Assembly: GCA_963701085.1 (NCBI GenBank)
Contig: OY969561.1
Location: 544,001 to 608,000 of the forward strand
DNA from: an uncultured bacterium
GTDB taxonomy: Bacteria > Babelota > Babeliae > Babelales > Vermiphilaceae
Direction: 5' to 3'
Length of the DNA: 64,000 bases
Position 1 is the stretch's first letter, and each line of letters begins with the position of its first letter. The translations under genes and the position numbers were made by a program. Positions 1,469-52,903 of the stretch are shown here, in pieces. The notes beneath the pieces are model-generated. The model did not search any database. It saw nothing but the letters and a program-made list of their open reading frames with translations, and was not told where the DNA came from.

Positions 1469-2578
1469 ATGGAGCCCCTAAGACCAGATACAGAATTAAA
1501 AAAAGAGAAAACTGATCATATATTTTCAGGCAATATTCTCATTTTATGGGCTTATGATGTTGGTGAAGACATTAACTTACAAAAAATTGAAGAATCACGC
1601 GATATTATTAAAATTCCACTCCACCTACCAAAACATTTTAAACAATATAACGTTCCGCTTGCTATTGAACTTCCGCGCCCACATTCAAGCTCCTTTTTTA
1701 TCAGCAGTAAAATACATAGCTTTGGCGCAATATCTTTAACGTACAAAATTCCATTCACTGATACCCTGGAAAATCTTCGCGTAAACTGCAATGAACTAGC
1801 AAATAAATATCAGCAACAAAGCGTTAAAGATGCCGAATCTATCTATAAAAAAATAGAACCTTTTACTATCCAGCCAAAATTCTTCCAAACAAGTGCATCA
1901 TACGTTATTATTCAGGTTGATCCGCAGCCGACCGCACTTGATTTAACACAACTGCAAAAAGCGTATGGTAGCACCATTGCATCTACCCTGAGATTTGAAA
2001 CAGAAATATTATCAGAGTTCCAAAAAAATGAAATTTTAGACTCTGCAATTGGCTACTTCCGCGGCAGTTTAATTGTTATAGATATTGACGCTGCATTTGT
2101 ATATGAAGAAGAGTATGACGATATTATCGATTTGTTCGAATTTGCTAATATCCAACAGCTTGAATTACGTTTCTTTGACCGTCTCCTTGATCAACAGATC
2201 AACACTATTTATGAACGTAAAGAAACAACATTATCTTGGGGTGCTTATTTGCCATTCTTTGGCACATTTTTCAGTGATCCGGTTGGCCAGCTGCGTAAAT
2301 TAAAAGCTGATATTTCCGTTATTACTGAACGGTTAGAAAGCAACATAAAAATTGCAGGAGAACCGTATTATTCAGAAATTCATAATCTTCTTGCTGATAA
2401 ACTTGATCTTAAAAATTGGCATGATGGCATTGATAGAAAATTGCGTATCGTTGAAGATGTGCAGACGGTATTTCAACAAAAAATTGATGCTAATCGGGAA
2501 GATCTCTTTTCCGTACTCATTATTATCTTAATTTTTATTGAACTTATGTTTGGTGTTTTGAGTTATTTAAAGGGCTAA
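1469..2578 (+). CDS. RMD1/YagE (DUF155)-like protein
   Basis: AYDVGEDI N-terminus; C-terminal coiled region then a LIIILIFIEL TM helix. Confidence 0.6.
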   Translation: MEPLRPDTELKKEKTDHIFSGNILILWAYDVGEDINLQKIEESRDIIKIPLHLPKHFKQYNVPLAIELPRPHSSSFFISSKIHSFGAISLTYKIPFTDTLENLRVNCNELANKYQQQSVKDAESIYKKIEPFTIQPKFFQTSASYVIIQVDPQPTALDLTQLQKAYGSTIASTLRFETEILSEFQKNEILDSAIGYFRGSLIVIDIDAAFVYEEEYDDIIDLFEFANIQQLELRFFDRLLDQQINTIYERKETTLSWGAYLPFFGTFFSDPVGQLRKLKADISVITERLESNIKIAGEPYYSEIHNLLADKLDLKNWHDGIDRKLRIVEDVQTVFQQKIDANREDLFSVLIIILIFIELMFGVLSYLKG

Positions 2579-3715
2579 ACTTGATGGATACTGCTCTTTA
2601 ACGCAACATTCCACCGCATCATCATAAGCTTTTTTAATCTCGCCAATAGCATCTAATAATTCAGCGTATTCTGCAAATGCAATTTTTTCAGCATTCAACA
2701 AATTTATATCAAATGTATCAGGAAAATTAATGTGTAACGGCTCAATCGTTTTATAGATATGATACAGCCGAACAGACGGCGTTACTTTATCTCCGCATGC
2801 TGTATTATAGTGTTCAATACATGAACACAAAAGAGCAATCTTACCCTTGTAACTATCATAAGCAAGTTTCATCTTGATATTCTCTAAAAGTATTGGCTCA
2901 TATGTATTCAGAGCATAATACCCTAAATCCTTTTCGTTCTGTATCAAACCTTTATTTTTCGCCCCATTGATCATAATAATAATAGTGCGCAATGTACTAT
3001 AAGGCTCTGGCGAGCACAACATTGCAAAAGCATCATGTACAAACTTTTTTTTCCAATCTTCATCAAAGGACACACCTTTATTACCTAACTGATCAAATTT
3101 TTGATTTGAGTGTATAAAAGAAACAAGCTCATGATAATGTGGGATTTTATTTAATAACAATGCATTAGTATCTTCAATCAATACCTCAATGACCTTACAA
3201 CTACCCACAAGATTAAGCCTTTTAGCCACAGGAGACCATGTTGTAGGCAGTATCTCTCCTGACGTTGCTGCTTTCTGATTATAATTCTTAAGAAAATAAA
3301 AAAAGAGAGAAGTTTTTTGATTAACAGTATCACGACAAAACGCAAACTTTCCCATGTGATCTTCATTAATACTATATTCCAGCTTTACATCATTACACGC
3401 ATTAATACATTGTATAAGATCTTGATAACGTGGAGATTTACAAGCAAGAAACAAACTGACTTTTTTATACAAATCATGCATATAATCACGGTGAGTTGGC
3501 ACAAGAGAGTTACACAATGATTCTTGTTGGTCTTGTTTTCTTTGCTCATTCAATGCATTTAATTCGATTGGTGCTTGAGAAGGAACTGGATTAATTAAAC
3601 TTCTAAAATTCAAGATGCTGTAACTATAAGGGACTATAAATGGTGTGCTATTCATGCACAATAAAGAAGAAATGTTACAAAGGGCTATGATACAGGCTGC
3701 ATAAAGCATAAACAT
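2567..3715 (-). CDS. Exported hypothetical protein
   Basis: 382 aa ORF, AGGAGG RBS, signal peptide ending SLLC|MNS. Confidence 0.75.
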   Translation of the reverse strand: MFMLYAACIIALCNISSLLCMNSTPFIVPYSYSILNFRSLINPVPSQAPIELNALNEQRKQDQQESLCNSLVPTHRDYMHDLYKKVSLFLACKSPRYQDLIQCINACNDVKLEYSINEDHMGKFAFCRDTVNQKTSLFFYFLKNYNQKAATSGEILPTTWSPVAKRLNLVGSCKVIEVLIEDTNALLLNKIPHYHELVSFIHSNQKFDQLGNKGVSFDEDWKKKFVHDAFAMLCSPEPYSTLRTIIIMINGAKNKGLIQNEKDLGYYALNTYEPILLENIKMKLAYDSYKGKIALLCSCIEHYNTACGDKVTPSVRLYHIYKTIEPLHINFPDTFDINLLNAEKIAFAEYAELLDAIGEIKKAYDDAVECCVKEQYPSSLAL

Positions 3716-3797
3716 AATAACCTCCTTATTTTTAGATTATCACTCATGCTCTTTACACTAACAAAAATGTTATCAATTAAAAAAGTATATAAAAACA

Positions 3798-3835
3798 AAT
3801 AAAGCTGCAAGGCCTGTAAGTCTTGCAGCTTTATT
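3798..3835 (-). terminator. Terminator downstream of grpE
   Basis: aataaagctgcaag...cttgcagctttatt inverted repeat. Confidence 0.65.
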
Positions 3836-3855
3836 AATGATTATTATGTATGTAT

Positions 3856-4407
3856 TTATTTGGCTACACTCACGGTAGCAGGGCGGATAACCTTATCATG
3901 CATGGTGTATCCTTTTTGAAGAACCTGCACAACTTGACCTGATTTATGTTTGTCGGATTCAACTTGAACCAATGCTTCATGATATTTAGGATTAAAGACA
4001 GAAAAATCACTCATTTCTTGAATCCCAAATTTAGCTAAAACTTTTTCAAGCGATTGATAAATCATCTCAAAACCAGCAAGCCATGCAACACCTGCAGCAT
4101 TTTCACGTTTTTTCTCTTGTTCAAGAGCACGTTCAAAATTATCAATAATCGCAAGAAGTTCTACAAAAACTTGCTTTTGAGCATCATGTGCCCAATCAAT
4201 TCTTTCTTGAGTAACTCGTTTTTTATAATTTTGAAAATCTGCCGTTAGGGATAAATATTTCTCAGCCCACTCTGTAACAGCTGCATTCGCCTTATCAAGT
4301 TGTTCTTTTTCACTCAAAACAGGCTCATTAGTGCCATCTAGTGATGCATTTGCATCATCATTACCGCCAAACCCGAAAAATTTCTTAAATTTATCATTGT
4401 CATTCAT
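3856..4407 (-). CDS. grpE: Nucleotide exchange factor GrpE
   Basis: ADFQNYKKR, FNPKYHEAL, QKGYTMHDKVIRPATVSV motifs. Confidence 0.95.
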   Translation of the reverse strand: MNDNDKFKKFFGFGGNDDANASLDGTNEPVLSEKEQLDKANAAVTEWAEKYLSLTADFQNYKKRVTQERIDWAHDAQKQVFVELLAIIDNFERALEQEKKRENAAGVAWLAGFEMIYQSLEKVLAKFGIQEMSDFSVFNPKYHEALVQVESDKHKSGQVVQVLQKGYTMHDKVIRPATVSVAK

Positions 4408-4530
4408 AAGAAAAATCCCCCTTACCTACAATATTCTAAAAAAACAATCTATGACTTAAGTATACCACTTTTCCTTTTTTTGATAAATTCCTTATACTTA
4501 AAAAAAACAGATTTTTAAAGAAAAAACCCT

Positions 4531-5793
4531 ATGAAAAATAAAAAAATTTATCTCATTATCCTGATTACTGCCGCCCATGCGGCATTTGCTATTGATAATC
4601 CTCATTTTTATCGTGCTACCAATATGTTTCTTGAGCCACGGCTTGAACATGACTACCTCACCACTTTTATCGCAACATTGGGAGGAGGAACTACTACCGA
4701 GGGACGCTCAAAAAACAATACCATAGTGCCACTACTCGATATATATGGCACCCACAACATCCAAGAATTGAACATTAACACCGCATTCACAAACCCCAAT
4801 AAACCTTACGACTTACTGCTCAATAACCTTGCACAACTGCCAAACAGACCTAATTTTGCAACAATTTCAATTGATGGAAAGTTTAATATCATAGAATCAA
4901 ACCTTTCATTTGCGCAAAACCTTGCTCACGGACTGTTCCTTTTCTTTTATTTACCGGTCAGAAGACTTAAAATAACTGATATTGGCATTACCGATCTTTC
5001 CCCGGACGACCAAACATTCCCTAACAAGCATACCCCTGAATGGCAAACCGTATGGCAGACACTCAATCCCCTTTTAACCAATTATGGCATCAATAGCTGT
5101 TCAACAATAAGCACGGGGGTTGGCGATCTTACCTCATGGTTAGGATGGACACATAACTATCAAGACACAACCACTATCGATTTTGTTGATGTTACCGTTA
5201 TGGCTGGATTCCTTGCTCCTACCGGTAAAGAACGCAACGAAAATAAACTCTTTTCACTCCCAACAGGCTACAATGGTCATTGGGGATTGCCGTTATGCGC
5301 AATGCTCTCGGTTGGCTGGTATGAATGGGTAACTGTTGGCGGATATCTCAACACGCTTTTTTTTACAAACAAAAATCACACCATGCGCCTCAAGACAGAT
5401 ATAGCGCAAAATGGCATCATAAAGCTCGCGTGCGGCGATGTTTCTGTACACAAAGGGCCACTCATCAACACAGGAGTTTATTTTAAAGCAGACCATTTTG
5501 GCCATGGATTTTCATTCACCACTGCTTATTCATTTGCTTCTCAACAAAAAGACCATCTTACACCAAAAAATCCAGCACTCTTTGATCGCTCCATTATTAA
5601 CAGCGACCAAACACTTGCTGGCTGGAATATGCATACCTTTAATTTTTCGCTTGAATATGATTTTTCCCGTGAAGGTAAAAACGTTGGCAACCGCATCGGC
5701 CTATTCTATAACCTTCAAATAGCGGGCGCAAGAACGTTTAACACCAACGTCACCGGCGGCACATATGGCATTGATATTGGCTGGTATATTTAA
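4531..5793 (+). CDS. Exported hypothetical protein, possible outer-membrane beta-barrel
   Basis: Signal peptide AAFA|; alternating aromatic beta-strand pattern; C-terminus GIDIGWYI. Confidence 0.6.
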   Translation: MKNKKIYLIILITAAHAAFAIDNPHFYRATNMFLEPRLEHDYLTTFIATLGGGTTTEGRSKNNTIVPLLDIYGTHNIQELNINTAFTNPNKPYDLLLNNLAQLPNRPNFATISIDGKFNIIESNLSFAQNLAHGLFLFFYLPVRRLKITDIGITDLSPDDQTFPNKHTPEWQTVWQTLNPLLTNYGINSCSTISTGVGDLTSWLGWTHNYQDTTTIDFVDVTVMAGFLAPTGKERNENKLFSLPTGYNGHWGLPLCAMLSVGWYEWVTVGGYLNTLFFTNKNHTMRLKTDIAQNGIIKLACGDVSVHKGPLINTGVYFKADHFGHGFSFTTAYSFASQQKDHLTPKNPALFDRSIINSDQTLAGWNMHTFNFSLEYDFSREGKNVGNRIGLFYNLQIAGARTFNTNVTGGTYGIDIGWYI

Positions 5794-5795
5794 AC

Positions 5796-6263
5796 CTAAT
5801 CCCGCTCATCCTGAGTGTTTTTGCCCTGCAAAAATGTATCGAAGGATTTTTCCATTGCGCAAATCATATCCTCAGCACAAAGAACAAAATCATAAGTTTT
5901 AGGCGTAATGACAACCAAAGAGAGTAACTGCTTAACTTTATTCAATACGGCAGCAAAATAGGCTGTATCATCTGCAATCCGTGGTGTCCCTTCTTGATGC
6001 ATACGATTGATACAAAATTGCGTAAAAGCTAACCGACCTAACAATAAATCAAACGATAACATCGCTCCATCACTCTTTTTTTCAAAAACATTAATCAATG
6101 CCTGCCACACATGCATCGATGACTCTAATCCTTTTTGATACCACGTCACGGGAAACAAAGAATCAAATGATAGGTTGACCTGATACGTTTGGGTCTTTGA
6201 TGATATACAACAGAAAACAACTGCCATTATCATCATCCAACTTTTTAAACTTTTTTCCATCAT
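5796..6263 (-). CDS. Exported hypothetical protein; C-terminus encoded by a palindromic repeat
   Basis: 155 aa ORF with N-terminal hydrophobic segment; SFDTFLQGKNTQDERD comes from repeat 5802-5847. Confidence 0.7.
   Translation of the reverse strand: MMEKSLKSWMMIMAVVFCCISSKTQTYQVNLSFDSLFPVTWYQKGLESSMHVWQALINVFEKKSDGAMLSFDLLLGRLAFTQFCINRMHQEGTPRIADDTAYFAAVLNKVKQLLSLVVITPKTYDFVLCAEDMICAMEKSFDTFLQGKNTQDERD
5802..5847. repeat. Palindromic element, family A (long variant)
   Basis: ccgctcatcctgagtgtttttg...caaaaatgtatcgaaggat; inverted near-copy at 6349-6393. Confidence 0.8.
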
Positions 6264-6348
6264 TCCCCCCTCTTACTAACAGCGTTTTCTCTACCTCCAT
6301 TGTTACAAATACCTCAGAGCAATGTCAATAAATATTCAATTAGAATAT

Positions 6349-6475
6349 ATCCTTCGATACATTTTTGCACGCAAAAACACTCAGGATGAACGGAGGAGTA
6401 ATCCTTATCCGCTCGCCCTGAGTGCGTTTTTTATGCCCGATCGTCCTGAGTGCCCCGTAGGGGTGTATCGAAGGA
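6349..6475. repeat. Cluster of family A palindromic elements
   Basis: Copies at 6349-6393 (inverted), 6409-6432 (partial) and 6440-6475. Confidence 0.8.
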
Positions 6476-6476
6476 A

Positions 6477-7031
6477 CTAGAAGGGCAAGTTATCTTCAAA
6501 TGGAGGTTCATCCTGAAAATCAATCTCGCCGGTTGAAGGAGCTTCTTCTTTTTTAACTGCTTTGGTCGCTTTAACACGTGTTTGCGCTTTTTCTAATTGC
6601 GCGAGCAAATCACGCTCAACAGCGTTGTTTGGATTAAGCTGAACACCAGCATCAGATTCATCTGCTAATGATGCACCAAATGCAGTTTCGGCCGAAGCGC
6701 CATTAGAAAGAAAGACAACACGCTCTGCAACAATAGAATGCTTGCTACGTTTTTGGCCTGTTTGATCATCCCATGAGTCTAATTTAAGACGACCTTCAAT
6801 CAGTACTGGACGACCTTTTTGCAAATACTGACGACAGCTTTCCGCTTGTGCGCCCCAAACATCAACATCAATGTAGCACACTTCTTGTACCAAATTGCCT
6901 GTTTGCTTATTTTTGAATTGACGATTGGTTGCTAATCCAAGACGGCATACCGCTTGCCCAGATGCAAGATTACGGTATTCAGGATCTCTTGTTAAATTAC
7001 CAATCATAATAATGCGATTAAACGCTGCCAT
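6477..7031 (-). CDS. ssb: Single-stranded DNA-binding protein
   Basis: NRIIMIGNLTRDPE, KGRPVLIEGRL, acidic tail ending DNLPF. Confidence 0.95.
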   Translation of the reverse strand: MAAFNRIIMIGNLTRDPEYRNLASGQAVCRLGLATNRQFKNKQTGNLVQEVCYIDVDVWGAQAESCRQYLQKGRPVLIEGRLKLDSWDDQTGQKRSKHSIVAERVVFLSNGASAETAFGASLADESDAGVQLNPNNAVERDLLAQLEKAQTRVKATKAVKKEEAPSTGEIDFQDEPPFEDNLPF

Positions 7032-7125
7032 ATCTCGGACCTTCACTCACGCTAAGATGTATACATTATTAATACCACTTGTTTTTGATAATAGCAGAAA
7101 AATATCTTTTGCTAAGCGCTATTTT

Positions 7126-8724
7126 TTAATGAGCTACTCCCAAAAATGAATATTTCCTAAACATATCCTCAACTATCCGTCGTTTAGCTGCAACATCATA
7201 TTCTTGCAATTCAATCATCTCAAGATCACCTATAAAATCGGCTCTCACATTTAATGGGACTTCTTTTTCTGCACGTTGTTTTAAATTGTGGACTAAATAG
7301 ATCATCTTGCCATAACGTTCATCATCAAGCGGCCTTGTTTGATCAACAAAAAGAGAATTAATGTCAACCAATGCTCGACGTATTTGACTGTACTCTTTTA
7401 TAGTAAACTTTTTATAACTACTATACCCAAGCCAACTAACAAATGCTGCTGGTGTCAGCAACACAAGATCTCTCACGCCCTTAAACTGCTTCTGTTCTGC
7501 TTCAATCGCATCTAAAATAAGCTTCAGAACATCTTCACCTATACTCACTCCAAACAAGAGAAAAAAGTCTATTAATCCATGCGCATAATCACTCTGACTA
7601 GCTAACCATTCTATAACACTTTGTATTGATGCCGTCGGTTGCAAAACAGACATTTTTGATGGATCCAACTTTTCCTTTTTTGCTATGTTTCCCAAAAATT
7701 TTAGAAATTCTTTATAATCACCCTTATCCATACCATCATTAATTATTCTTGGCTCACCTAGTCCATATTTTTTACTCATATCAATCACAAATTGTTTAGC
7801 CTCGTCTAATGAGACATTTTTAGTATTAGCTAATGATGGAAGCATTACGCTCACTTTCTGCTTAGTTGTATTTTCCGGAAAAAGAACATTTATACTTCTC
7901 TTGACGGGCATCATAATCGGATCATAAACATTAACTTTTAAAGATTCAAATGCCGCTTGCAATTGATCAAAACTAATATTTTTATATCCATAGCCCAAGC
8001 CAAACATCAACGCCCCATACTTCAACCAGTTACGCTCAAAATGGACAGGAATCTGAGTGTCAGACATTTCTGATAAAATATCATTTTTAAAACGCCGGAC
8101 TTTTCCAAGCTTTAATCGTAACAACATCACTCGTGTAATAAATGGCGAGCTTTCATCACTATCCTGAGTATCTACTTTTATACGCGGCAATAAATCCAAT
8201 AATTCATCTATCCACGCATAGCCTTTTTCATAATCTTGCACAAAGACCGTTTTTCGTTGATGATCATAAACATTACCCAACTGCGCAAGCTGTCCCAATA
8301 AGACATACAACTCACCCTGATGACTTTGCAGTTGCTCAAGATTATTTTCTATCTCTTCTTTCTGTGACTTGCCCGTAACCCATTTAAGTGGACTTTTAGT
8401 TAAAAAATACCGCCACTGATGATTTCTTTGATCCTGCCAATATTTAATACGAGCATCAATTTCTTGTAATGCTGCTAATATTTGCGCATACGCATTGTCA
8501 TATAAAACTTTTGCGCATTTAACGAGCGCACCACTTTGCACTTTTTTATACACGTGCTCAGCTGCAACATCCTCTGAAAAATTACTCGTCACCCTTCGCA
8601 AATAAGACAAGGCGTCTGCTATTGTAGAAATAGTCACTTGCGGTGCAGGATGTGCTGCCTGGCAAACGCCACCGATGGTAAAAAAAGAAACTATTACCGC
8701 AACTCTTTTAATCAATATATTCAC
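7126..8724 (-). CDS. NCA2/DGS1-like exported/membrane protein, paralog 1
   Basis: Probable GTG start at 8724 after a GGGGG RBS; signal peptide; YWQDQ..YFLTKSP, PVHFERNWLKY, LLTPAAF, YGKMIYLVHNL, KRRIVEDMFRKYSFL. Confidence 0.6.
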   Translation of the reverse strand: MNILIKRVAVIVSFFTIGGVCQAAHPAPQVTISTIADALSYLRRVTSNFSEDVAAEHVYKKVQSGALVKCAKVLYDNAYAQILAALQEIDARIKYWQDQRNHQWRYFLTKSPLKWVTGKSQKEEIENNLEQLQSHQGELYVLLGQLAQLGNVYDHQRKTVFVQDYEKGYAWIDELLDLLPRIKVDTQDSDESSPFITRVMLLRLKLGKVRRFKNDILSEMSDTQIPVHFERNWLKYGALMFGLGYGYKNISFDQLQAAFESLKVNVYDPIMMPVKRSINVLFPENTTKQKVSVMLPSLANTKNVSLDEAKQFVIDMSKKYGLGEPRIINDGMDKGDYKEFLKFLGNIAKKEKLDPSKMSVLQPTASIQSVIEWLASQSDYAHGLIDFFLLFGVSIGEDVLKLILDAIEAEQKQFKGVRDLVLLTPAAFVSWLGYSSYKKFTIKEYSQIRRALVDINSLFVDQTRPLDDERYGKMIYLVHNLKQRAEKEVPLNVRADFIGDLEMIELQEYDVAAKRRIVEDMFRKYSFLGVAH

Positions 8725-8881
8725 AACTACCCCCTTTACATAAAAAAAAATAATCTCTGTCCTCAAGCATATCTCATACGGCTTGCGGCAATCTAGACTA
8801 TTATTCAAAAAAAAGTGTGACCCTCCTGCGCCGCGACTAGGCGGACAGGCAATCACACTTTTAATAATCATTCAAAAATTT

Positions 8882-10654
8882 TTATGCTGCGATACGTCCC
8901 AAAAATGCGTATTTATTAAACATATTTTCAACAATACCACGCTTTATTTGTGGATCATATTGCTTTGATTCAAGCTTTGCCACATCAGTTAAAAATTCAT
9001 GCGATAATGGATCTTTAAGAGAATGTGCTTTATGGCGTAATTTATAAATTAAATACACCAACTTGCCATAATCATAATCATCAAGTTGTGCAAATGATTC
9101 TATTAAAAGAGAGTTAACATCAGCAAGTGCTATGCGTATTGGTGAATAATTTTTCTTGACGGCCCATTGATATGTCTTTGCACTACCTATACAAGCAGCA
9201 GCTAGCGGAGTAAATGCAGCAAGTTTTGCCGTCCAAAAATTGTTTTTAACAAAATCACCTACAACATTACCACCATCAACAATCAACAACCCTATTTCTT
9301 TGATTAATGGAACAATTTTTTTATCGATAAGCTCTGGATAATCTTGTAATAATGTCAATAACTCATCAACCACTAAAAGAATTCGCACTTCTTCTTGATC
9401 AAGACGATCATCATAATAATAAAAGGAAGTCTTTTCAGTTAACTCATTCAGCTTTTTCAAATTATTATTCGCCACATCCTGCATAATCTCTTCTTTATTA
9501 GCAACTTTCATTTTTGTTAGCGTTGTTTCCAATATCTTTTGGGCATATTGTCGCAATGACTCTGCACTCTTTTTAGTTAAAATCGCCACATTTGATTCTA
9601 TATCATTTGCTAATTTTTCTATCTCATCAACCCTTTTTTCAATATTATCAATTGAACTTTTTGAATCAATACCAAAGAAAACTTGATACAAATCCGTCAT
9701 TGGATCAATGACAACACTTTCAACAACTCCTTGAGCAAAGGAAACTGTTTTTTTAAATGCAGCTGGTAAAACCTTAGGGTTATTTGAATGATAATGCACC
9801 GCATACCCTGCTGCCGCCAAGATTGTTGTATATGCAATCCAATTACGTACAAAATGATTTGGCTGCCTGGCTGAAGCCATTGATACAAGAGAGTCACTCT
9901 TTAATGAACCAACATATTTAATTTTTAACCCTAGTTCAGCGGCAATAGCATCAAATTTGGTCCCATCAAAACTGTAGTTAGATGACACTTTTAGACAAGA
10001 CAAAATAGCAAACAACTGTTCTATCCAGACATAACAGTCATCATACATAACACCCGTTTCAGTAAATGCATGAGCATGTTCAGTAAGCAATCCTAATAGA
10101 GTGTATAACTCACGCTGTTTACGCTCTAATTTAATCAAATTATTGGTGATCTCTTTTGCCTGAGGCTTACCCATAATCCATTTTATAGGAGACTTATGAA
10201 AAAAATAATCCAACTGATGATGATGCTGATCACGCCAATAGCAAATAACATTATCAATTTCCTCTAATGCACTCAAAAGCTCGTTACGCGCATCGTTCAA
10301 AAAAACATGCGCGCAGGTTAATAACAGCGCGCTTGATATTTGTTCATATCGTTTATACACATCACTCTCAGCGGTTTCTACTTTTACCATCTCTTGATGA
10401 GCGGAACGAATGCGTGCAAGCAATGCAGTATGAGAAAAATCACCATAATTTTTAAACAGATAACGTAACTCTTTTTTATATGACACATTATCATCAACAT
10501 ATCGCTGAGGACCCTGCATGCAATGAGCATCGGTATATTTTATATAGCGAGTTACCGCTTGCTTAAATTCAATGGAAGATTTATGCCCTGATCCAGTACA
10601 CAAAGAAAAACTCAAAAAAGATACAATTAACAACTTATTTATTGGTATATTCAC
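8882..10654 (-). CDS. NCA2/DGS1-like exported/membrane protein, paralog 2
   Basis: Signal peptide; YWRDQ..YFFHKSP, QPNHFVRNWIAYT, VIDPM, LAAFTPL, YGKLVYLIYKL, KRGIVENMFNKYAFL. Confidence 0.6.
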   Translation of the reverse strand: MNIPINKLLIVSFLSFSLCTGSGHKSSIEFKQAVTRYIKYTDAHCMQGPQRYVDDNVSYKKELRYLFKNYGDFSHTALLARIRSAHQEMVKVETAESDVYKRYEQISSALLLTCAHVFLNDARNELLSALEEIDNVICYWRDQHHHQLDYFFHKSPIKWIMGKPQAKEITNNLIKLERKQRELYTLLGLLTEHAHAFTETGVMYDDCYVWIEQLFAILSCLKVSSNYSFDGTKFDAIAAELGLKIKYVGSLKSDSLVSMASARQPNHFVRNWIAYTTILAAAGYAVHYHSNNPKVLPAAFKKTVSFAQGVVESVVIDPMTDLYQVFFGIDSKSSIDNIEKRVDEIEKLANDIESNVAILTKKSAESLRQYAQKILETTLTKMKVANKEEIMQDVANNNLKKLNELTEKTSFYYYDDRLDQEEVRILLVVDELLTLLQDYPELIDKKIVPLIKEIGLLIVDGGNVVGDFVKNNFWTAKLAAFTPLAAACIGSAKTYQWAVKKNYSPIRIALADVNSLLIESFAQLDDYDYGKLVYLIYKLRHKAHSLKDPLSHEFLTDVAKLESKQYDPQIKRGIVENMFNKYAFLGRIAA

Positions 10655-10745
10655 CAGTGTTCCTTATTGCAAAAAATGCGTATACAACGCGCATAATATC
10701 TATTTATATTATACCAGAAAAAATGAATTAGGAAAGCTACTTATT

Positions 10746-11162
10746 TTATTCAGACTGAATTTTTGAAACTTCTGCACGTAAAAACTCAAGACGCTGCTGC
10801 AACTTTTGTATCTCATCATTGCAACGCTCCAATTGGCACATTACCTTAGTTCGTTTTTGATGATAATCTGTCCGGCAGCTTTTACTCGCTTGCTTTAAAA
10901 AAGAATCTTTCTCTCCATCAGCATAGCCACTCAATAGATCAAGAGCCTCTTGTTGGACAACGTCAGTAGTTGATCGTAAGGCATTAACTGACCTATTAAG
11001 ATTATTTACTATAACAACAATATCGCTCTCAATTTCTATACATTGCTGCTCAGAGACATATTTCTTTTTATTTTTTGGCAGCGTAATAGACTCTTGTTCA
11101 ACAGAACAAGCACTACACATACCAATTACCATTACCAAAAGATTGATATACCGTTTTTTCAT
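10746..11162 (-). CDS. Putative lipoprotein, coiled-coil
   Basis: MKKR, hydrophobic stretch, CSAC lipobox-like. Confidence 0.65.
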   Translation of the reverse strand: MKKRYINLLVMVIGMCSACSVEQESITLPKNKKKYVSEQQCIEIESDIVVIVNNLNRSVNALRSTTDVVQQEALDLLSGYADGEKDSFLKQASKSCRTDYHQKRTKVMCQLERCNDEIQKLQQRLEFLRAEVSKIQSE

Positions 11163-11168
11163 ATCTTT

Positions 11169-11786
11169 TTATTTCCCACTATTAATCATGCGCAAGCCTA
11201 TCCGCGCATATTGCCCAAATGACGCACTAATAAAGAGTATCATAACGCCAAGCATTGTATAATAGGTCTTAATGGGCATCCAGCAAAAAAAATAACAGGC
11301 AAAAAGCCACATAATAAATATCATCTGGATACAGGTAGTTGTTTTTCCAAGAATTGTCGGCTGTACGTTCAAATGACCACGCAAGCGATAAATAACAAAG
11401 GCCCCCACAATTTGTATCACCTCTTTACCCACCACAAAAAGCACAAACCAGCGTGGAATAGAAAACAGTGGCGTAGTTACAAAAGCTAACGTGAAAAAGC
11501 AGGATATCAGCAGTAATTTATCTGCTATTGGATCAAGACAAGCACCAAGAAATGTTTTTTCATTCAACAAACGGGCCAAAAGGCCATCAATAACATCGGT
11601 AAAACAGGCAAAAACAAAGAAAAAAAATGCGCACCCCCACCAACCAATAATCATGGCGCCAATTATTATTGGAACTAAAATTATTCGCAAAAGCGTAAAA
11701 AGCGTTGGAATGGTAATACGCTTTTCTGCATCTGGTAAGCGTTTGAAAATGCGTAACGTAAATCGAGATAGGTTAATTTTTTTCAT
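11169..11786 (-). CDS. pgsA: CDP-alcohol phosphatidyltransferase (PgsA/cardiolipin synthase-like)
   Basis: TIPTLFTLLR; DVIDGLLAR...GACLDPIADK signature. Confidence 0.8.
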   Translation of the reverse strand: MKKINLSRFTLRIFKRLPDAEKRITIPTLFTLLRIILVPIIIGAMIIGWWGCAFFFFVFACFTDVIDGLLARLLNEKTFLGACLDPIADKLLLISCFFTLAFVTTPLFSIPRWFVLFVVGKEVIQIVGAFVIYRLRGHLNVQPTILGKTTTCIQMIFIMWLFACYFFCWMPIKTYYTMLGVMILFISASFGQYARIGLRMINSGK

Positions 11787-11794
11787 TGATACAC

Positions 11795-12862: not shown

Positions 12863-13029
12863 TTTTTCCTTCAGTATTCAACGCATATATCTTTATAAGC
12901 ATATCATTTTCATGGAAAATTTCAATTTGTCCTGCAACAAAACAACATTTTTACAATTCTCTTGATCTTGGATATTTCTTTATTATATAACCATAAAGTA
13001 ATAAAACTTTTTAAAAATGAGGATATGTT

Positions 13030-13230
13030 ATGCAAAAAAGAGAATTAGCTAAATTTCTTTCCGGTGTCGCTGTTGCTAAAGTAGGATGCCATGCAGTGTT
13101 AGCCGCAAGTAATGTATTACCACTTACTTTATTAGGATGCACTATTTCCGTTAATTGTAATTTTTGGATGCTTATAATCTGGACTGCCGCAGCGATATTT
13201 CTAATCCACTATGCCTGGTTCAAAAAATAA
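13030..13230 (+). CDS. Small two-TM membrane protein
   Basis: 66 aa, GAGGA RBS, two hydrophobic segments, coupled to dipZ. Confidence 0.6.
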   Translation: MQKRELAKFLSGVAVAKVGCHAVLAASNVLPLTLLGCTISVNCNFWMLIIWTAAAIFLIHYAWFKK

Positions 13231-13232
13231 AC

Positions 13233-15384: not shown

Positions 15385-15392
15385 AATTTTAC

Positions 15393-16016: not shown

Positions 16017-17192
16017 CTAGACAATACATATATCACGACGTTGCAAAAGTGCAGGAAGTTTACCAATTACAACATAATCATGCTTCTTTTCTTTAACTGC
16101 CATATGATAGACGCAGTACCCAAGAAGATATAAACCAGTTACCCAAGAAGCCCCCAGAGTTGGCCGCTCTGCACTTCGTGCTATAGACTCAACAATCTTA
16201 AAAAAAATAATTCTTGCAAAAGTGCCCATCATGTTCTTTGCCTTTAACGTAGTTGAACCTGTCAACGCAAACGTAAAACAATCATACATCGGAATACCTG
16301 CTGAAAACCACGATACCATTTTCATGTACACTAAGGGATTGAGGCAATAGATATGCTCATCTCTCATTGGGACACGTGCATTAAAAAAATCTCTACTTCC
16401 TGTTGCTTGATATGCACGCACAGCTTCAGCGTTAAAATCATTCGCTATTGCGTTAATCCTAACATTCCTTTCATTTACGCCACAAATATCGAACCAAGGA
16501 AGCGCGAACGTTATAAAAACTGATAAAAAAAATGGTAAATAACGCAGATCCTCTTTGATGAATTTTTTGAGGGTAAATGATTCATAAAATTCATAGCGGT
16601 AATAGGGTTTACCATTTTCTAAAAAAGAATTCTGGAATATCTCAGCTACCTTAGCAATAGCTTCCAATTCACTTTTATCACGACTGCGGTCAACACAAGG
16701 CTCACCAAAAACAGTAATTTCTTTGGCAAGACCACAAATAATATCAGGTTTAAAATGAGGATTCTGGAAACAACGCTCTCTAAAAAAAGCATTTTTTTCA
16801 TCATTAATAATGTCTAAAAAACCCTCATAACAATATGCCTGTGCAATAGGCATATGCAAAAAAGCTTTGACGTGCTCATCATCCTTATACAAGCAACAAG
16901 CAATAGCTATTCGCAAATCTGGCACAAACTTTGTAGCAATATTAAATAATGCGTTCAGGCGTTCATCTTTATGATTGATAATGTTTTTAGTTACTTTTCT
17001 TTTGTCCCTTTCAGACAATGAAGAAAACCACACAGCTCCCTTACTCAACGATGTCAGCGGAAACCCTTTTAAAGATTTAAATGTTACTATGCGCTGATTT
17101 TTATTATCAGGCTCAAGGGAACGCTTCATGGGATAAGCAACGCCAAAAGAGATGAGCATAAAAAACACATTTATTTTTTTAACAATACACAC
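16017..17192 (-). CDS. Exported/membrane hypothetical protein
   Basis: 391 aa; signal peptide VAYP|MKR; C-terminal hydrophobic segments. Confidence 0.7.
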   Translation of the reverse strand: MCIVKKINVFFMLISFGVAYPMKRSLEPDNKNQRIVTFKSLKGFPLTSLSKGAVWFSSLSERDKRKVTKNIINHKDERLNALFNIATKFVPDLRIAIACCLYKDDEHVKAFLHMPIAQAYCYEGFLDIINDEKNAFFRERCFQNPHFKPDIICGLAKEITVFGEPCVDRSRDKSELEAIAKVAEIFQNSFLENGKPYYRYEFYESFTLKKFIKEDLRYLPFFLSVFITFALPWFDICGVNERNVRINAIANDFNAEAVRAYQATGSRDFFNARVPMRDEHIYCLNPLVYMKMVSWFSAGIPMYDCFTFALTGSTTLKAKNMMGTFARIIFFKIVESIARSAERPTLGASWVTGLYLLGYCVYHMAVKEKKHDYVVIGKLPALLQRRDICIV

Positions 17193-17330: not shown

Positions 17331-18410
17331 ATGTTATCACAAAAAACAAATCTCATACTACTTGTTGCTCTTTTACTCAACCTGAGTGCTAATCTTACGG
17401 GCATGGAAATAACCTATACGCCTGACTCATTAATTGCTAATCCTGTACAATATCTTACGAACATGAACACAGCGCTTGATGCATTCAAACAAGAAGCAGA
17501 TAATCTTGAGACAACAAAAACAACAGATCAACACGACCTTGCAAACCTCACCAAAAAATATAAAGCCGTAATTCAAAAACACGAACAAACCTGTCCTTTA
17601 TTTTTACTAAAAGAATGCACCAAAGAAATAGGAAATATACAACTCAACAACAATTGTTTACTCAGCAGAACATATAAACCGCATTTTAGAGAAATTTTTG
17701 AAAAACACACCAGTCAACTATTAATTGAAAAATTACAAGCATCATCAACAACCCCGATTACTTATACAAGTTTTGGCTGTGGTGAAGCATTCCAGGACCT
17801 CATTATTATCACCAAGGTGCTTATAAAACAACCAAAGGCACTGTTAACTATTCATCTGATAGACGGTAACAACACTCCCTATGTAGCCGCTGTAGATTTT
17901 CTTGCTTGTTCTCGAGAAATAACAATAAAGCATGATTTTAGCTTTGATTCTCGACTGGAAGAATATGAACCATACGCTCGAAATAAAGACAAGGATTATC
18001 CGGAAATTCAGGCTATGTCTCATCAAGCACTAAAGCAACAATTAACGCTATTATGTCTGGAAAAAGAAGCACAATACAAACAATTTTTATCATGGCTCAC
18101 GCAAAAGTTTCCTTTATCACAGATTTCTCTCTACTTGCATGATCAAGTCATTAATTATTGCAACTTTATAAAAAAGAACAATCTCCCCCATGCCGATGTT
18201 ATAACTGCTGCTGACATTGAAGATGACGAAAGTCTCGCAAACGGGAGTATTCAAGACTATAAGATACTTTGCGGAGAAACATTAACTAAAAACCCTACAT
18301 CAGTTAATGCATGGTTAGGCAAGCTTGATGACAATTCCGCAAGAATATTAACAGTCTCTTTGCCAACAAGATTATCTTTTAAACTTAATGAAATTATTCT
18401 TGAGGCTTAG
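17331..18410 (+). CDS. Exported hypothetical protein, possible Rossmann-like motif
   Basis: Signal peptide NLTG|MEI; YTSFGCG...IHLID pattern. Confidence 0.7.
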   Translation: MLSQKTNLILLVALLLNLSANLTGMEITYTPDSLIANPVQYLTNMNTALDAFKQEADNLETTKTTDQHDLANLTKKYKAVIQKHEQTCPLFLLKECTKEIGNIQLNNNCLLSRTYKPHFREIFEKHTSQLLIEKLQASSTTPITYTSFGCGEAFQDLIIITKVLIKQPKALLTIHLIDGNNTPYVAAVDFLACSREITIKHDFSFDSRLEEYEPYARNKDKDYPEIQAMSHQALKQQLTLLCLEKEAQYKQFLSWLTQKFPLSQISLYLHDQVINYCNFIKKNNLPHADVITAADIEDDESLANGSIQDYKILCGETLTKNPTSVNAWLGKLDDNSARILTVSLPTRLSFKLNEIILEA

Positions 18411-19592: not shown

Positions 19593-19596
19593 ATAG

Positions 19597-20889: not shown

Positions 20890-22173
20890 ATGAAAAAATT
20901 ATACGCATTATTATTATGCACAGCATTACATATCTCAGCCGATGAAATTGAAATCGCCGTATCAGGCGCACAACAAGCACAAATGCCCATTGCTCTTATA
21001 GTTCTGGATGAAAAAAACAGTGAACTTAACGATATTGCCACCATCATAAAAAAAGATTTACAATTTACCGATCAATTCAAGCCATCTATTAAAAAATGTG
21101 ATGCTCATTTACCAAAAAAAACATTGCGCAAACATATACAAAAATTGTCTCAGACAGACACACCACTGGCACTCTGCATCAGTAGCGAATCTAAAAACAA
21201 TATTACATGGCGGTTATATGATACTATGCAATGCACCATGATATGTGGAAAAAAATACACAAAACATGGCTCAATTGTGCGCGGATGGGCGCATACCATT
21301 GCTGATGAAACATGGAAAGCGCTGACGAGCAATGATGGTTTTTTTTCTTCACGAATAGCATATTGTAAGGATTCAAAAAACGATAAAGGACACACCATCC
21401 GCAAAGTGTACATAGCCGATTTTGATGGCAGCAATGAAGAACTCCTTGTTGATCTACCCACTATCACCGTTGCACCTCGCTGGCACACCAAAAAACCACG
21501 CCTCACGTATTCGGAATATGCCAATACCAATGTAGAATTGATGTCTGTTGGCATGGATAAGAAGAGAAAACCTCTTTCAACTTTTGATGGCATTAATATG
21601 CTTGCAGGCTTTTCACCAAGCGGAAAATCAGTAGCGTATTGCGCCTCACGCGGAAGTGGTAGTTGCCAAATCTACCTACGTAACAATGGCAATCTAAAAC
21701 GCTGCACCAAAAATACCGGCAACAATACTTCCCCTATTTTTATTGATGACAATCACCTCTGCTTTTGCTCAGATTTTCAGACGGGTAATCCGCAAATTTA
21801 TATCGGCAATATTCAAACCGGCCATCTTCAGCGCATTACCCATGGTGGTTATTGCACATCACCAAGCTACTGTCCAAAAACGCATAAAATTGCTTACCAC
21901 AAAATGATCCATAGCACCATGCAAGTTATGATGTATGACTGCACAACCAAAAGTCATACACAGTTAACTAAAACAAGCGGCAATAAACACGAAGTCAGCT
22001 GGTCTCCCGATGGTACACACCTGCTTTTTGCACACGAAATTCCTGATAAAAATAGCCGCTTATGCTCACTCAACCTCTTAATGAGCACGACAAAATATAT
22101 AACCAGCACAAACGATGAATGTAGCTACCCTCACTGGGGGCCTTGTTATAAGGAATTTCCTGTTGTAACCTAA
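20890..22173 (+). CDS. tolB: TolB
   Basis: Signal peptide, TolB N-domain (AHTIAD, GFFSSRIAY), PD40 repeats (SWSPDG). Confidence 0.9.
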   Translation: MKKLYALLLCTALHISADEIEIAVSGAQQAQMPIALIVLDEKNSELNDIATIIKKDLQFTDQFKPSIKKCDAHLPKKTLRKHIQKLSQTDTPLALCISSESKNNITWRLYDTMQCTMICGKKYTKHGSIVRGWAHTIADETWKALTSNDGFFSSRIAYCKDSKNDKGHTIRKVYIADFDGSNEELLVDLPTITVAPRWHTKKPRLTYSEYANTNVELMSVGMDKKRKPLSTFDGINMLAGFSPSGKSVAYCASRGSGSCQIYLRNNGNLKRCTKNTGNNTSPIFIDDNHLCFCSDFQTGNPQIYIGNIQTGHLQRITHGGYCTSPSYCPKTHKIAYHKMIHSTMQVMMYDCTTKSHTQLTKTSGNKHEVSWSPDGTHLLFAHEIPDKNSRLCSLNLLMSTTKYITSTNDECSYPHWGPCYKEFPVVT

Positions 22174-28506: not shown

Positions 28507-29238
28507 TTAAAAACCAAATCCACCAAGAGATCGTGAACATATCGAGCATTTTTTGTCTCTCATACCATCATAACAATTAATACAGATAAAATTACCCAGA
28601 TGTCTATTAACACATGGAATGTTAGATAAATAATATCGATGTGTTTTACACACAAAACATGCTTGCATATTAAACAACTTAATCATCTTCGGCCTCATTG
28701 GATGTTTCATAGGAATTTTAAAATAAATATTTTTATTAACTGCCGCACCATACAACAACAGTTTTTTTATCACATCTTTATTAGACTGTTCTACAGCATA
28801 ACAGAGTGGGCTGTTACCATAACTATCATATATATTAACGCGCGCTCCACCCTTTAAAAGATCTAAATATTTATCACCATCATTCTGTGCAATTACCCTG
28901 CATAACAAAAGTCTCCCTGCGATATCATACACATCAAGATCAAATCCACTATGCACTAATTTCTTAAGAGATGCATACTTGAACAATTCTTTTGTTGAAA
29001 CTGCAATAAACGCATCGGCAAAGCTTCGGTGCACACAAGAAAGCGCTTTATCATCTTCATGCCCAAACAAAACAGAGGGATTATTTTTAATGATATCTAC
29101 CACGTCATCAATATTACCATAGTCAAAGGCTCTTATAAGCGCTGTTCGAGCTATCTGCTTATCAGTAACTGAATTCATCCCTATGATAGTGCCCGCACTC
29201 ATTATGCACCATAAAAACAGATATATTTTAATTTTCAA
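28507..29238 (-). CDS. Exported ankyrin-repeat protein with C-terminal RING-like zinc finger
   Basis: Probable TTG start at 29238; GNSPLCYAV..LLLYGAAVN; C-x2-C-x11-C-x3-H-x5-C-x2-C-x8-C-x2-C. Confidence 0.8.
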   Translation of the reverse strand: MKIKIYLFLWCIMSAGTIIGMNSVTDKQIARTALIRAFDYGNIDDVVDIIKNNPSVLFGHEDDKALSCVHRSFADAFIAVSTKELFKYASLKKLVHSGFDLDVYDIAGRLLLCRVIAQNDGDKYLDLLKGGARVNIYDSYGNSPLCYAVEQSNKDVIKKLLLYGAAVNKNIYFKIPMKHPMRPKMIKLFNMQACFVCKTHRYYLSNIPCVNRHLGNFICINCYDGMRDKKCSICSRSLGGFGF

Positions 29239-29333
29239 ATTGTCCCTCAATTGCTCTGTAATGCGCATCTTACCCATTATCTAAAAATATAATAAAAATT
29301 AGCGTATTTGCCAATCAGAACACAATCGTCACT

Positions 29334-50548: not shown

Positions 50549-50550
50549 AC

Positions 50551-52203
50551 TTACATTTTTTCCGGATGACTGATGCCAAGAATATCCAAAACAAGCGCAA
50601 TCGTATTTCTCAATAATCCAATCATAAGCAAACGACCACGGCTTTTTTCTTTATTTGCCGGATCAATAACACGAACATGGCTATAATAACGGTGGAACAG
50701 CTGTGCAAGCTCCAGCACATAATATGTCAGTAAATGTGTTTGATGGTTCACGGAAATATCAATTAATAGCTGCTCAAGGAATACGATTTTTTTGAGTAAA
50801 AATGCTTCCTCTGGCCCCAAATGTTGCGCATCGTTGCCATTGATATCATCCAAATGAGCTTCTTTTGCTGCTTTTTCTAAAATACTGCCGGTCCGAACAT
50901 AGGCATATTGCACATAATAGACAGGATTTTCTTCAGTTTTTTTAAGCGCTAACCCAAGATCAAACTCAAGCTGGGCGTCTGCTTTACGGTTTAAATAAAA
51001 AAAACGGGCAACATCTTTGCCAACCGTATCAATAATATCTTGTAGCCCGACAATTGCACCCGCACGCTTTGACATGCGTACCATTGCCCCATCTTCTGAT
51101 ATTTTAACGAGCTGATACAAAATAACGGAAAGAGGAATATTTGTGTATCCTAACCCATCCTTTACCGCATTAAGACGGGTAACATAACTATGATGATCAT
51201 GCCCAAGAACAAAAATCAAATTATCAAAGCCACGATCTATTTTATTTTTTAAATACGCAATATCCGCGGCAATATAGGTATACTCACCCGTTGATTTTTG
51301 GATAACGCGATCTTTATCATCACCAAATTGCGTTGTCTTAAACCATACAGCACCATCTTGCTCAAACAGCAACCCATTCTTCTGCAAGATTTCCAATGCT
51401 TTTGTTATTGCGCCGCTTTCATGCAATGTTTTTTCTGAAAACCACACATCATATTCAATACCATAATCTTTGAGCGTATTTTTGAGCGCTTCAAGAAGGT
51501 TCTCTTTTGCATAGTTAACAAAAAAAGAATCAGGTTTTTCAAAAAGTTCTTGTCCACATTCAGCGTAGCAATCTTGTGCAAGATCTTTTAAATATTCCCC
51601 ATGATAGCCATCTTCAGGAATTGTTGCGTCCATTCCCGCCGCTTGCAAACAACGTATTTTAAATGATTCACCAAGTTTGCAAATTTGATTACCCGCATCA
51701 TTAATATAAAATTCTTTGCTCACATTGTGCCCCACAAAACGCAGCACATTCCCAAGCACATCACCAATAATACCGCCTCTGCCATGACCAAAATGCAATG
51801 GTCCCGTTGGATTGGCACTGACAAATTCAAGAGAATAATTATATTTTTTTTCTAACGTGTCTGGCTTAAAAAAGACCTCTTTTTGTTCATAGAGCTCTTG
51901 AGCGATTCGCACGAACGCCTCTTGCTTGAGGTACATATTAATAAAACCAGGACCAGCGATTTCTATTTTTTCTACTAAAGGATGGGTAAATGATGTGGCA
52001 ATTTCGGTCGCCACTTCACGTGGGATGCGTTTTAATGCTTTGGCAAGCACGAGCGCTACACTTGTTGATAAGTTACCAAACGCCTGCTTTGCCTCATCCA
52101 CATTGATATGTAGACGTGTTTGATCTGATGGTATATCAACTGACGAGAATAATGTTTTAATATGCGCGGTAAATGCTTTTTGAATACAATCGATACTATT
52201 CAT
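50551..52203 (-). CDS. argS: Arginine--tRNA ligase
   Basis: AGPGFIN, EFVSANPTGPLHFGHGR, YINDAG, MSKRAG, NPVYYVQYAY. Confidence 0.97.
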   Translation of the reverse strand: MNSIDCIQKAFTAHIKTLFSSVDIPSDQTRLHINVDEAKQAFGNLSTSVALVLAKALKRIPREVATEIATSFTHPLVEKIEIAGPGFINMYLKQEAFVRIAQELYEQKEVFFKPDTLEKKYNYSLEFVSANPTGPLHFGHGRGGIIGDVLGNVLRFVGHNVSKEFYINDAGNQICKLGESFKIRCLQAAGMDATIPEDGYHGEYLKDLAQDCYAECGQELFEKPDSFFVNYAKENLLEALKNTLKDYGIEYDVWFSEKTLHESGAITKALEILQKNGLLFEQDGAVWFKTTQFGDDKDRVIQKSTGEYTYIAADIAYLKNKIDRGFDNLIFVLGHDHHSYVTRLNAVKDGLGYTNIPLSVILYQLVKISEDGAMVRMSKRAGAIVGLQDIIDTVGKDVARFFYLNRKADAQLEFDLGLALKKTEENPVYYVQYAYVRTGSILEKAAKEAHLDDINGNDAQHLGPEEAFLLKKIVFLEQLLIDISVNHQTHLLTYYVLELAQLFHRYYSHVRVIDPANKEKSRGRLLMIGLLRNTIALVLDILGISHPEKM

Positions 52204-52371
52204 ACTGTTTTCCTATTAAGTCCTATTATTCCTATATTTTACCACAAATATGAATAGTTCGATAGTCATAACATAAAAAACGTGCTTTGGCCCATCTGAG
52301 CCAAAAACACCCCTTTTATATAATTATTCAAAAAAGAATCAGCTACTATTGATTGATAGCTAAACCTTCAT

Positions 52372-52903
52372 TTACCGTATAAAAATCTTCTTCAACTCTT
52401 TCATGATTCACATACCAAGTCTTTAAAGAAATACACTATTTTTTACACTATTATTTAAAGTCAGCAATTTTCGAATTCAATTGATCTGCAGACGGTACTT
52501 TCTAAAGCAACTGGTTCAGCTACTGCATTGTTACTTCTTGAGACTGACCAATGTATATCAGACCATCGACATTAGCTTATTTGATCTATTACTTCATCAT
52601 TATATTTTGATTAGGCAATGTTGCATCTTTAGCGATAGCTGCAAAAAATATCCCTGCCAATACCACTGGTGATGAAATTTTACCTTTATGCACTGCAAAT
52701 GCGTATAGTGCAACTGCGGTTGTCATTGCTACAGCAGCTATCTGTACTGAACATTTTTTATACCATACAGCTGGCACCATCTCAGTTTGTTGCTCAAAAA
52801 CATCAAAATCTACACCTTCATTTTCCATACTATATGCAGGTATAGTCACTACTACCGCTGCAAAAAATAATAACGAATTCATCTGTCTGTAAAAGCTATT
52901 CAT
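52372..52903 (-). pseudogene. Exported hypothetical protein, frameshifted after about 100 aa
   Basis: Signal peptide PAYS|MEN and a TM segment; coding-like sequence continues in other frames to about 52372. Confidence 0.45.

Follow-up and report, generated by a model that had tools for sequence, protein, structure and literature searches.

The -3/-1 (A-x-A) rule for cleavage by signal peptidase I (SPase I) is established. In the Bacteroidetes a phylum-specific Q-rule places Gln at +1 of most SPase I substrates, where it is cyclised to pyroglutamate, and the paper on this rule argues for a role in stability and against one in sorting (PMC5837995). The present work concerns a different residue at the same position, a Met that directly follows Sec-type signal peptides and is often followed by Glu. 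It is found in nine open reading frames (ORFs) of a 64,000-nucleotide stretch (hereafter the window, bases 544001-608000 of contig OY969561.1) and throughout the source genome, a single contig of 1,198,634 bp with 37% G+C. The threonyl-tRNA synthetase of this genome shares 80-84% identity with its counterparts in metagenome-assembled genomes (MAGs) of Babeliales/Dependentiae (TM6) and 67% with the Vermiphilus pyriformis enzyme. The Dependentiae live as parasites of protists; they are widespread and for the most part uncultured.

The Met junction has in common with the Q-rule that a single, lineage-specific residue is over-represented just after the Sec/SPase I site and was found by a proteome-wide count (PMC5837995). 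The Q-rule, as presented there, covers most SPase I substrates including periplasmic ones, whereas Met is present in about half of the signal-peptide proteins here and not in recognisable housekeeping envelope proteins. Furthermore, the residues are Met then Glu and not Gln, which occupies +1 at 43 of 1574 sites (0.7x background). No modifying enzyme is proposed for the Met-Glu junction and we know of none. The canonical Sec signal peptide is retained in its n-, h- and c-regions, in its length of ~21 aa, in the small residues at -1 and -3 and in the single S26 peptidase available; the differences are Met at +1, Gly as frequent as Ala at -1, His/Phe/Tyr at -2 and Leu/Ile at -3. The PEXEL (Plasmodium) and RxLR (oomycete) motifs are likewise short motifs at a cleavage site after a signal peptide, with an acidic or polar new N-terminus and large, fast-evolving host-directed families. 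They belong, however, to eukaryotic secretory-pathway systems with known proteases and lie 15-30 residues past the signal-peptide cut, not at the cut as here; any protease or translocon dedicated to Met-Glu would be hypothetical. The lipoprotein lipobox (L-x-[G/A]↓C, with its +2 rule; the arrow marks the cut) shares Leu at -3, Gly/Ala at -1, a sulphur residue at +1 and a +2 residue that possibly sets the destination, but a +1 Met cannot be lipidated through a thiol.

The secretomes of two members of the phylum have been described. Signal peptides were reported on 44% of the coding sequences and 78% of the ankyrin proteins of Chromulinavorax (PMC6561590), and on 79 of 126 ankyrin proteins of Babela, where type II secretion was the only system detected (PMC4378268). 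The phylum, the kinds of protein and the proposed Sec plus type II-like route are the same as in the present case (PMC6561590, PMC4378268). The word "methionine" occurs 0 times in the main texts of these two papers, where the residue after the cleavage site goes unmentioned, and in the literature we found no account of a Met in this position in Dependentiae; the same junction could appear in the protein lists that supplement PMC6561590 and PMC4378268. The Met-Glu junction is a second example, after the Q-rule, of an SPase I-exposed residue under lineage-wide selection, here class-specific within one proteome. It is a candidate for what tells host-directed proteins from periplasmic housekeeping ones, or for a host-stability device, and provides a practical handle for effector prediction in MAGs.

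Met at +1 of predicted signal-peptide cleavage sites

The ORF set comprised 1234 ORFs without mutual overlap, each of 60 aa or more, the farthest upstream start being taken as the ORF start. Candidate sites were defined by a rule blind to +1, which demanded nine uncharged residues as a hydrophobic core, a small residue at both -1 and -3 and a hydrophilic sequence thereafter. Note that cleavage sites are throughout predictions made with our own rules and that the gene calls are crude. An earlier note on the window had drawn attention to its nine ORFs and had named a genome-wide enrichment of Met at +1 as the check to be made. The enrichment is present: Met is found at 211 of 1574 rule-defined sites, in 206 ORFs (13.4% versus a background of 2.0%, 6.7x), and every other residue at +1 stays at or below 1.8x background. 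A positional spike of Met also appears 7 and 8 residues past the N-terminal hydrophobic core (67/732, 9.2%, and 56/732, 7.7%, versus 2.0%). The comparison set consisted of partial samples of five relatives and two unrelated control genomes; in the latter the identical pipeline yielded 3/144 for a Sporosarcina contig (0.8x) and 2/143 for a Saccharimonadales contig (0.7x). The Met coincides with signal-peptidase-like sites, since A, G, S or C stands at -1 in 77% of the 236 Met that were collected regardless of that position (background about 21%) and the mean signal-peptide length is 21.1 aa in the Met and non-Met classes alike. After quality filtering, the Met class counted 185 strict and 27 relaxed members (212) and a tight non-Met signal-peptide class 192. 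The Met class of some 200 ORFs represents about half of the Sec-type signal-peptide proteins of the genome, a size that is approximate because the rules are home-made and have false and missed members; the latter include further true-looking members. In the window, all nine junctions exist as the earlier note described them, with a Sec-type signal peptide, Met directly at +1 and ATG as the +1 codon in every case. The -3/-1 small-residue rule is obeyed by eight of them, the exception being VAYP↓M with Pro at -1.

The n-region of the Met-class signal peptides carries at least one Lys/Arg in 173/185 strict ORFs and Asp/Glu in 6/185. Measured from the upstream start, the Met lies at a median distance of 21 codons (5th-95th percentile 17-28). 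The c-region shows Ser/Thr at -6 to -4, Leu/Ile/Thr at -3, and His (6.1x background), Phe, Tyr or Gln at -2. Position -1 is Gly (60, 5.3x), Ala (59), Ser (38) or Cys (17). The non-Met class is of the classical V/A-x-A type, with Val/Ala at -3 and Ala at -1 in 119/192. The residue after the Met is Glu at 96, Asp at 23, Asn at 11 and Gln at 10 of the 211 sites (Glu/Asp 119/211, 56%), and in the strict set Glu in 89/185 and Asp in 21/185. Mature Met-class proteins are thus predicted to begin with Met-Glu after the single SPase I has cut before the Met. Other signal types fit poorly. A twin-arginine (Tat) motif is present in the n-region of 0/185 strict Met-class ORFs. The prepilin-type signal is not matched: the hydrophobic stretch precedes the cut, a hydrophobic 20-mer follows it in 0/185 and Glu is at +5 in 16/185. 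A lipobox Cys at +1 is excluded by the definition of the class; lipoproteins with such a Cys exist separately in the genome (e.g. window 10746-11162).

The Met class does not derive from one expansion, because it divides into 130 singletons and 19 paralog families of up to 20 members. Conservation of the junction was followed in 135 paralog pairs of at most 60% identity aligned across it, any ORF being allowed as partner; note that the pairs are not independent. Met is aligned to Met in 109 of them (81%), which makes it the best-conserved junction position, ahead of +2 (64%), -1 (61%), -5 to -2 (47-51%) and +3 to +11 (20-36%). Judged from these alignments, Met(+1) and Glu(+2) are under purifying selection. 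Conservation of the signal peptides as protein sequence is seen both among paralogs and across genomes. A spreading promoter-plus-signal-peptide cassette was considered and dropped: blastn with the upstream and signal-peptide DNA of 404 ORFs gave 173 similar pairs, and among the best-scoring pairs listed most are neighbouring ORFs, apparently tandem paralogs.

The proteins that carry the junction were classified by a Pfam scan of 203/212 Met-class and 178/192 non-Met ORFs, the remainder crossing tile borders. Ankyrin or WD40-type repeats (E<=1e-6) are found in 29/203 Met-class versus 4/178 non-Met ORFs (Fisher p=1.6e-5), and one of these four has a Met three residues beyond the predicted site. 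The 41 ORFs matching Ank_2 include 24 of the Met class by rule and 2 more by eye, 3 non-Met proteins and 10 fragments devoid of signal peptide. These ten fragments are clustered on one strand at 513.5-520.8 kb of the genome (513502-520810) and have the appearance of a single very large ankyrin gene interrupted by frameshifts or stops. The Met class also includes an F-box protein, a C2H2 zinc-finger protein and PLD, PLA2_B, PEBP, HAD and methyltransferase proteins. A few false members are membrane anchors (FtsX, MlaD, permease), and members without a Pfam family amount to 70/110 (E<=1e-3) and 70/93 (E<=1e-5). Every recognisable housekeeping envelope protein is non-Met (PBP2, YidC, SecD, SecF, ZnuA, TolB, SppA, Prc, Skp, TamB, T2SS-C-like and solute-binding proteins). 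The non-Met class also holds collagen/S74 surface proteins, BNR, GH1, M3, PP2C, PLA2_B and PLD proteins, with 109/178 lacking a family. The division between effector-like and housekeeping exported proteins drawn in the earlier note therefore extends to the whole genome as regards ankyrin/WD40 proteins on the one side and envelope housekeeping on the other, but it is not clean, as PP2C, PLA2_B, PLD, NCA2-like and collagen-like proteins are non-Met.

Met-class genes have a G+C content of 34.3%, versus 37.4% and 38.3% (other genes 38.3%; p=1e-40). They tend to lie in tandem arrays, 118/212 having a Met-class neighbour where about 67 are expected. A search for an upstream regulatory motif of Met-class genes found nothing beyond AT-richness, the best k-mer being AAATAA (p=1.4e-4 over 391 tests). 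Two thymidylate kinase genes, 63% identical and 0.8 kb apart (genome 723590-724231 and 725039-725773), differ in export: the cytosolic copy starts MPQLTKGIL, while the exported copy has a signal peptide and Met-Glu (...FTSHA↓MENHKQLNRGIL). The latter is possibly an exported nucleotide kinase acting on host nucleotide pools.

A putative sorting mark read after Sec export

The reading that we favour, plausible but short of probable, is that the junction or the N-terminus it creates is a selected protein-level tag of the host-directed secretome and acts as a sorting discriminator. Met-class proteins would be translated with an ordinary Sec signal peptide and exported via Sec. The single SPase I would cut before the Met and expose a Met-Glu end. 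Junction or N-terminus would then be read as the discriminator for a second step, in which some 200 unrelated proteins would leave the periplasm via secretin/type II-like machinery or vesicles while housekeeping periplasmic proteins would stay behind. By likeness to PEXEL in Plasmodium, this would amount to a cleavage-coupled export licence. A discriminator is logically needed because the genome codes for one S26 peptidase, secretins and T2SS-E and has ~200 exported proteins to separate from periplasmic residents. Sorting is preferred because the junction is the only systematic difference found between the classes and because it reaches -3 and -2, positions that would be of no account if the tag acted only after delivery. 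A more specific form, in which [L/I]-[H/F/Y]-[G/A/S]↓Met-Glu would be a bacterial host-targeting signal, read during or after the cut by signal peptidase, that routes ~200 unrelated proteins from the periplasm into the host, is a more doubtful proposition. If true, PEXEL/RxLR would have a counterpart in prokaryotes, and the motif would constitute the first linear sorting code of a two-step, Sec-dependent route for effectors; it would also supply a one-line sequence rule predicting effectors in this Dependentiae clade.

The genome has one Peptidase_S26 gene (661135-661956). No other S26 gene that could code for a second signal peptidase was found, other junction-acting protease families not having been searched for. 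SecD, SecF and YidC are encoded, and there are two secretin matches and two strong T2SS-E ATPase matches. The idea that the presence of secretins tracks the prevalence of Met was rejected, since all five relatives have two secretins and no correlation is seen.

The frequency of Met at +1 in relatives is graded, from 5.0x down to 1.4x. A close relative has 5.0x (40/441), Vermiphilus 2.4x (21/473, followed by Glu in 9) and a Babeliaceae MAG 2.6x (18/418). In this MAG no preference for Glu is seen, the next residue being Ala, Gln or Asp, so the preferences for Met and for Glu may have separate histories. A search with the 36371 ORF of the window gave a weak match in 1/5 relatives only; such window proteins consequently evolve too fast for ortholog-based tests.

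Several observations weigh against a sorting role. Cleavage, secretion and the reader of the tag are all predictions. The site rule returned 11 matches in the window, namely the nine ORFs of the earlier note and two that were judged false, one being a lipoprotein and the other having its Met within the hydrophobic core. Each secretin is split into two ORFs (993226-995622 and 998228-1000473; 524+241 aa and 318+400 aa) and the pilM/N/O-like ORFs between the secretin genes also look fragmented; the split secretins reflect either decay of the outer-membrane channel or assembly indel/sequencing errors. Two tandem secretins are found in 5/5 relatives; nine of these ten genes have open frames of 802-967 aa, and the tenth, in Vermiphilus, has one of 312 aa. 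Met is thus dispensable for the conserved outer-membrane machinery, because relatives with little or no Met keep two secretins and because non-Met ankyrin/WD40 homologues exist, several of them in other Babeliales genera (e.g. ...ILYG↓ARP, ...QIHA↓TEV). In a 100-kb sample of a more distant member of the Babeliales, Met at +1 is not enriched (1.4x, 3/116). Only 12 site-spanning alignments were obtained across genomes (42 query-genome pairs with a homologue); they show Met opposite Met in six and another residue in six (Gln, Thr, Val, Ile, Tyr, Val), and about 5/12 involve probable false members without signal peptide. Finally, non-Met signal peptides are borne by proteins that are probably secreted or host-directed, namely PP2C, PLA2_B, PLD, PI3/4-kinase-like, NCA2-like and collagen-like proteins.

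Alternative roles and origins of the Met

Of the suggestions made in the earlier note, a sorting signal and a host-like N-terminus are both still viable. A host-compatible N-terminus, the best of the alternatives but a rather unlikely one, would give Met-Glu/Asp a role only after delivery, when it would avoid the host N-degron machinery or mimic NatB-type proteins. This would suit the residues after the Met in the strict set, where Asp/Glu/Asn/Gln are found in 126/185 and both Leu/Ile/Phe/Tyr/Trp (28/185; background about 26%) and small residues (18/185; background about 38%) are depleted. It would also suit the distribution of the junction, as it is in the Met class that eukaryote-type cytosolic domains occur, and housekeeping proteins never meet the host N-degron machinery. 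The non-Met ankyrin/WD40 homologues of relatives begin with Ala or Thr, which are also stabilising N-terminal residues. The choice of Met over Ala, Ser, Thr or Gly is left unexplained, however, as are the excess of Glu over Asp, Asn and Gln and the class differences at -3 and -2, before the cut. Moreover, NatB acts on nascent chains and not on delivered proteins, and +1 of the non-Met class is not biased to stabilising residues (76/192, about background).

The +1 Met might otherwise be a relic, the former initiator of cytosolic or captured genes that gained a signal peptide by 5' extension, without present function. The Met class has features of a young, low-GC accessory set, its domain families are normally cytosolic, and the +1 Met of the exported thymidylate kinase lies within three residues of the start of its paralog. 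It is nevertheless three residues off the old start and not aligned with it. The residues after the Met are also not those of starts in this genome. Real second residues of signal-peptide proteins are Lys in 43% and Asn in 15%, and those of 101 cytosolic-type genes with a Shine-Dalgarno-supported start are Lys (18), Asn (13), Ala (11), Glu (5) and Asp (2), i.e. Glu/Asp in 7/101 against 119/211 after the +1 Met. A Shine-Dalgarno remnant precedes only 3% of the internal Met, in 77% the position of the Met is precisely +1 of a peptidase-like site, and the Met is the most conserved junction position in paralogs at 25-60% identity, where a functionless relic should decay. An origin as relic is thus improbable. 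The suggestion of the earlier note that a signal-peptide module was fused ahead of the start codons of captured genes is disfavoured on the same grounds (Glu/Asp 56% vs 7%, lack of a Shine-Dalgarno remnant, conservation of the Met) and by the lack of a 5' DNA cassette.

A second translation start, with the internal ATG yielding a form without signal peptide and each gene two isoforms, is very unlikely. Met alone among residues has an RNA-level role, selection on ATG would also conserve it, and the 44867-45175 ORF has an AAGGA 15 nt ahead of its internal ATG. In the class as a whole, a Shine-Dalgarno-like word within 20 nt upstream is found for 51% of the upstream starts and 38% of 343 control genes versus 3% of the internal Met. 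The first codon is ATG in 192/206 Met-class ORFs, neither TTG nor GTG is enriched at +1 of the genome-wide sites, and the base-frequency table has no -10-like signal before the internal Met. Together with the Lys/Arg n-regions, these data imply that the signal-peptide segment is translated and that the internal Met is not accompanied by a start signal; the possibility raised in the earlier note that translation actually begins at the internal Met is answered accordingly. The next codon is Glu, not the Lys or Asn typical of starts here, and a cytosolic isoform of ~200 host-directed proteins would be without evident use. A Kozak-like nucleotide context was rejected, as 17 sites have Cys (TGY) at -1 and T is base -3 in 19%, so that this base is not always a purine.

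An ORF-calling artefact, in which the internal ATG is the true start and the "signal peptides" arise by chance as AT-rich upstream DNA is read through in frame, might account for a few members because the farthest upstream start was used (e.g. an epimerase whose domain begins soon after the second Met), but as a general explanation it is exceedingly improbable and largely refuted by the 0.7-0.8x of the two control genomes under the identical pipeline, the upstream segments having moreover their Lys/Arg n-regions (173/185), uncharged cores of 9 or more residues, tight lengths, their own Shine-Dalgarno motif and conservation as protein between paralogs and genomes.

Exported proteins of the window

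Table 1. Window ORFs with a Met junction and window proteins with other signal peptides (window coordinates; the arrow marks the predicted cut).
ORF (strand)	Protein	Signal peptide	+1 Met codon	Junction
2567..3715 (-)	382 aa, no Pfam family	3656-3715	3653-3655	SLLC↓MNS
16017..17192 (-)	391 aa, no Pfam family, GTG start	17130-17192	17127-17129	VAYP↓MKR (Pro at -1 atypical)
17331..18410 (+)	359 aa, no Pfam family	17331-17402	17403-17405	NLTG↓MEI
28507..29277 (-)	ankyrin protein, C-terminal RING-like Cys pattern	up to 29179-29277	29176-29178	TIIG↓MNS
36371..37291 (+)	paralog A, 306 aa, no Pfam match	36371-36430	36431-36433	HLNA↓MEL
37410..38240 (+)	paralog B, 276 aa, no Pfam match	37410-37469	37470-37472	HLNA↓MEL
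38324..38752 (-)	142 aa, C2H2-like motif by eye	38678-38752	38675-38677	TAQG↓MKR
44867..45175 (-)	small ORF		45098-45100	SIIA↓MDK
52589..52903 (-)	104 aa, C-terminal hydrophobic segment	52829-52903	52826-52828	PAYS↓MEN
20890..22173 (+)	TolB (Pfam PD40, TolB_N)	non-Met		HISA↓DEI
4531..5793 (+)	420-aa exported protein, no Pfam match	non-Met		AAFA↓IDN
54481..55419 (+)	DUF4097 protein (Pfam)	non-Met		DCSA↓KLR
55497..56456 (-)	collagen-repeat protein with BclA_C domain (Pfam)	non-Met		
7126-8871, 8882-10654 (-)	NCA2-like tandem paralogs	non-Met		VCQA↓AHP, CTGSG↓HKS

The first ORF of Table 1 has AAGGAGG upstream of its first ATG. The true start of the ankyrin ORF may be its second ATG, and that of the 44867..45175 ORF is likely the ATG at 45166, 9 nt after AAGGGG. 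The signal peptides of paralogs A and B differ by conservative replacements only. The domain labels of the earlier note were upheld by Pfam for ankyrin (Ank_2, E 7e-8), TolB, DUF4097 and collagen/BclA_C. The RING assignment is weak (zf-C3HC4_3, E 0.0025, below cut-off), the "F-box-like" label of paralogs A and B finds no Pfam match, and the C2H2 motif is recognised by eye, the same ORF having a weak FOXP-CC match (E 0.0056).

TolB, the 4531 protein, the DUF4097 protein and the collagen-like protein all lack Met at +1, as claimed in the earlier note. Its statement that all eukaryote-like domains of the window fall in the Met class holds for the ankyrin protein and fails for the two NCA2-like paralogs, whose matches are to the NCA2 C-terminal part (E 1.7e-6 and 2.8e-4). 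In eukaryotes, NCA2 is a mitochondrial protein concerned with ATP-synthase regulation. Chromulinavorax, a cultured member of the phylum, remodels the host mitochondrion.

The collagen-repeat protein of the window (55497-56456) belongs to a family with BclA_C or Peptidase_S74 ends that is also encoded at genome 14987-25250, 67680-72472 and 373826-430000. Some members are very large (one ORF of 4385 aa); they have mostly non-Met signal peptides and, in a few cases, Met-Ala. These proteins resemble spore or phage-fibre surface filaments, Peptidase_S74 being an endosialidase chaperone. Another signal-peptide protein, encoded at 645-1328 (+), consists mostly of RGG/GGG and PG repeats followed by a Tyr/Gly/Trp-rich and Ala/Glu-rich tail and has no Pfam family; the strand opposite its repeat bears long spurious ORFs. 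The segment 57847-58595 (+) has two small overlapping ORFs that, by eye, resemble a nucleotidyltransferase (MNT) and HEPN pair, a toxin-antitoxin type reported for Babela.

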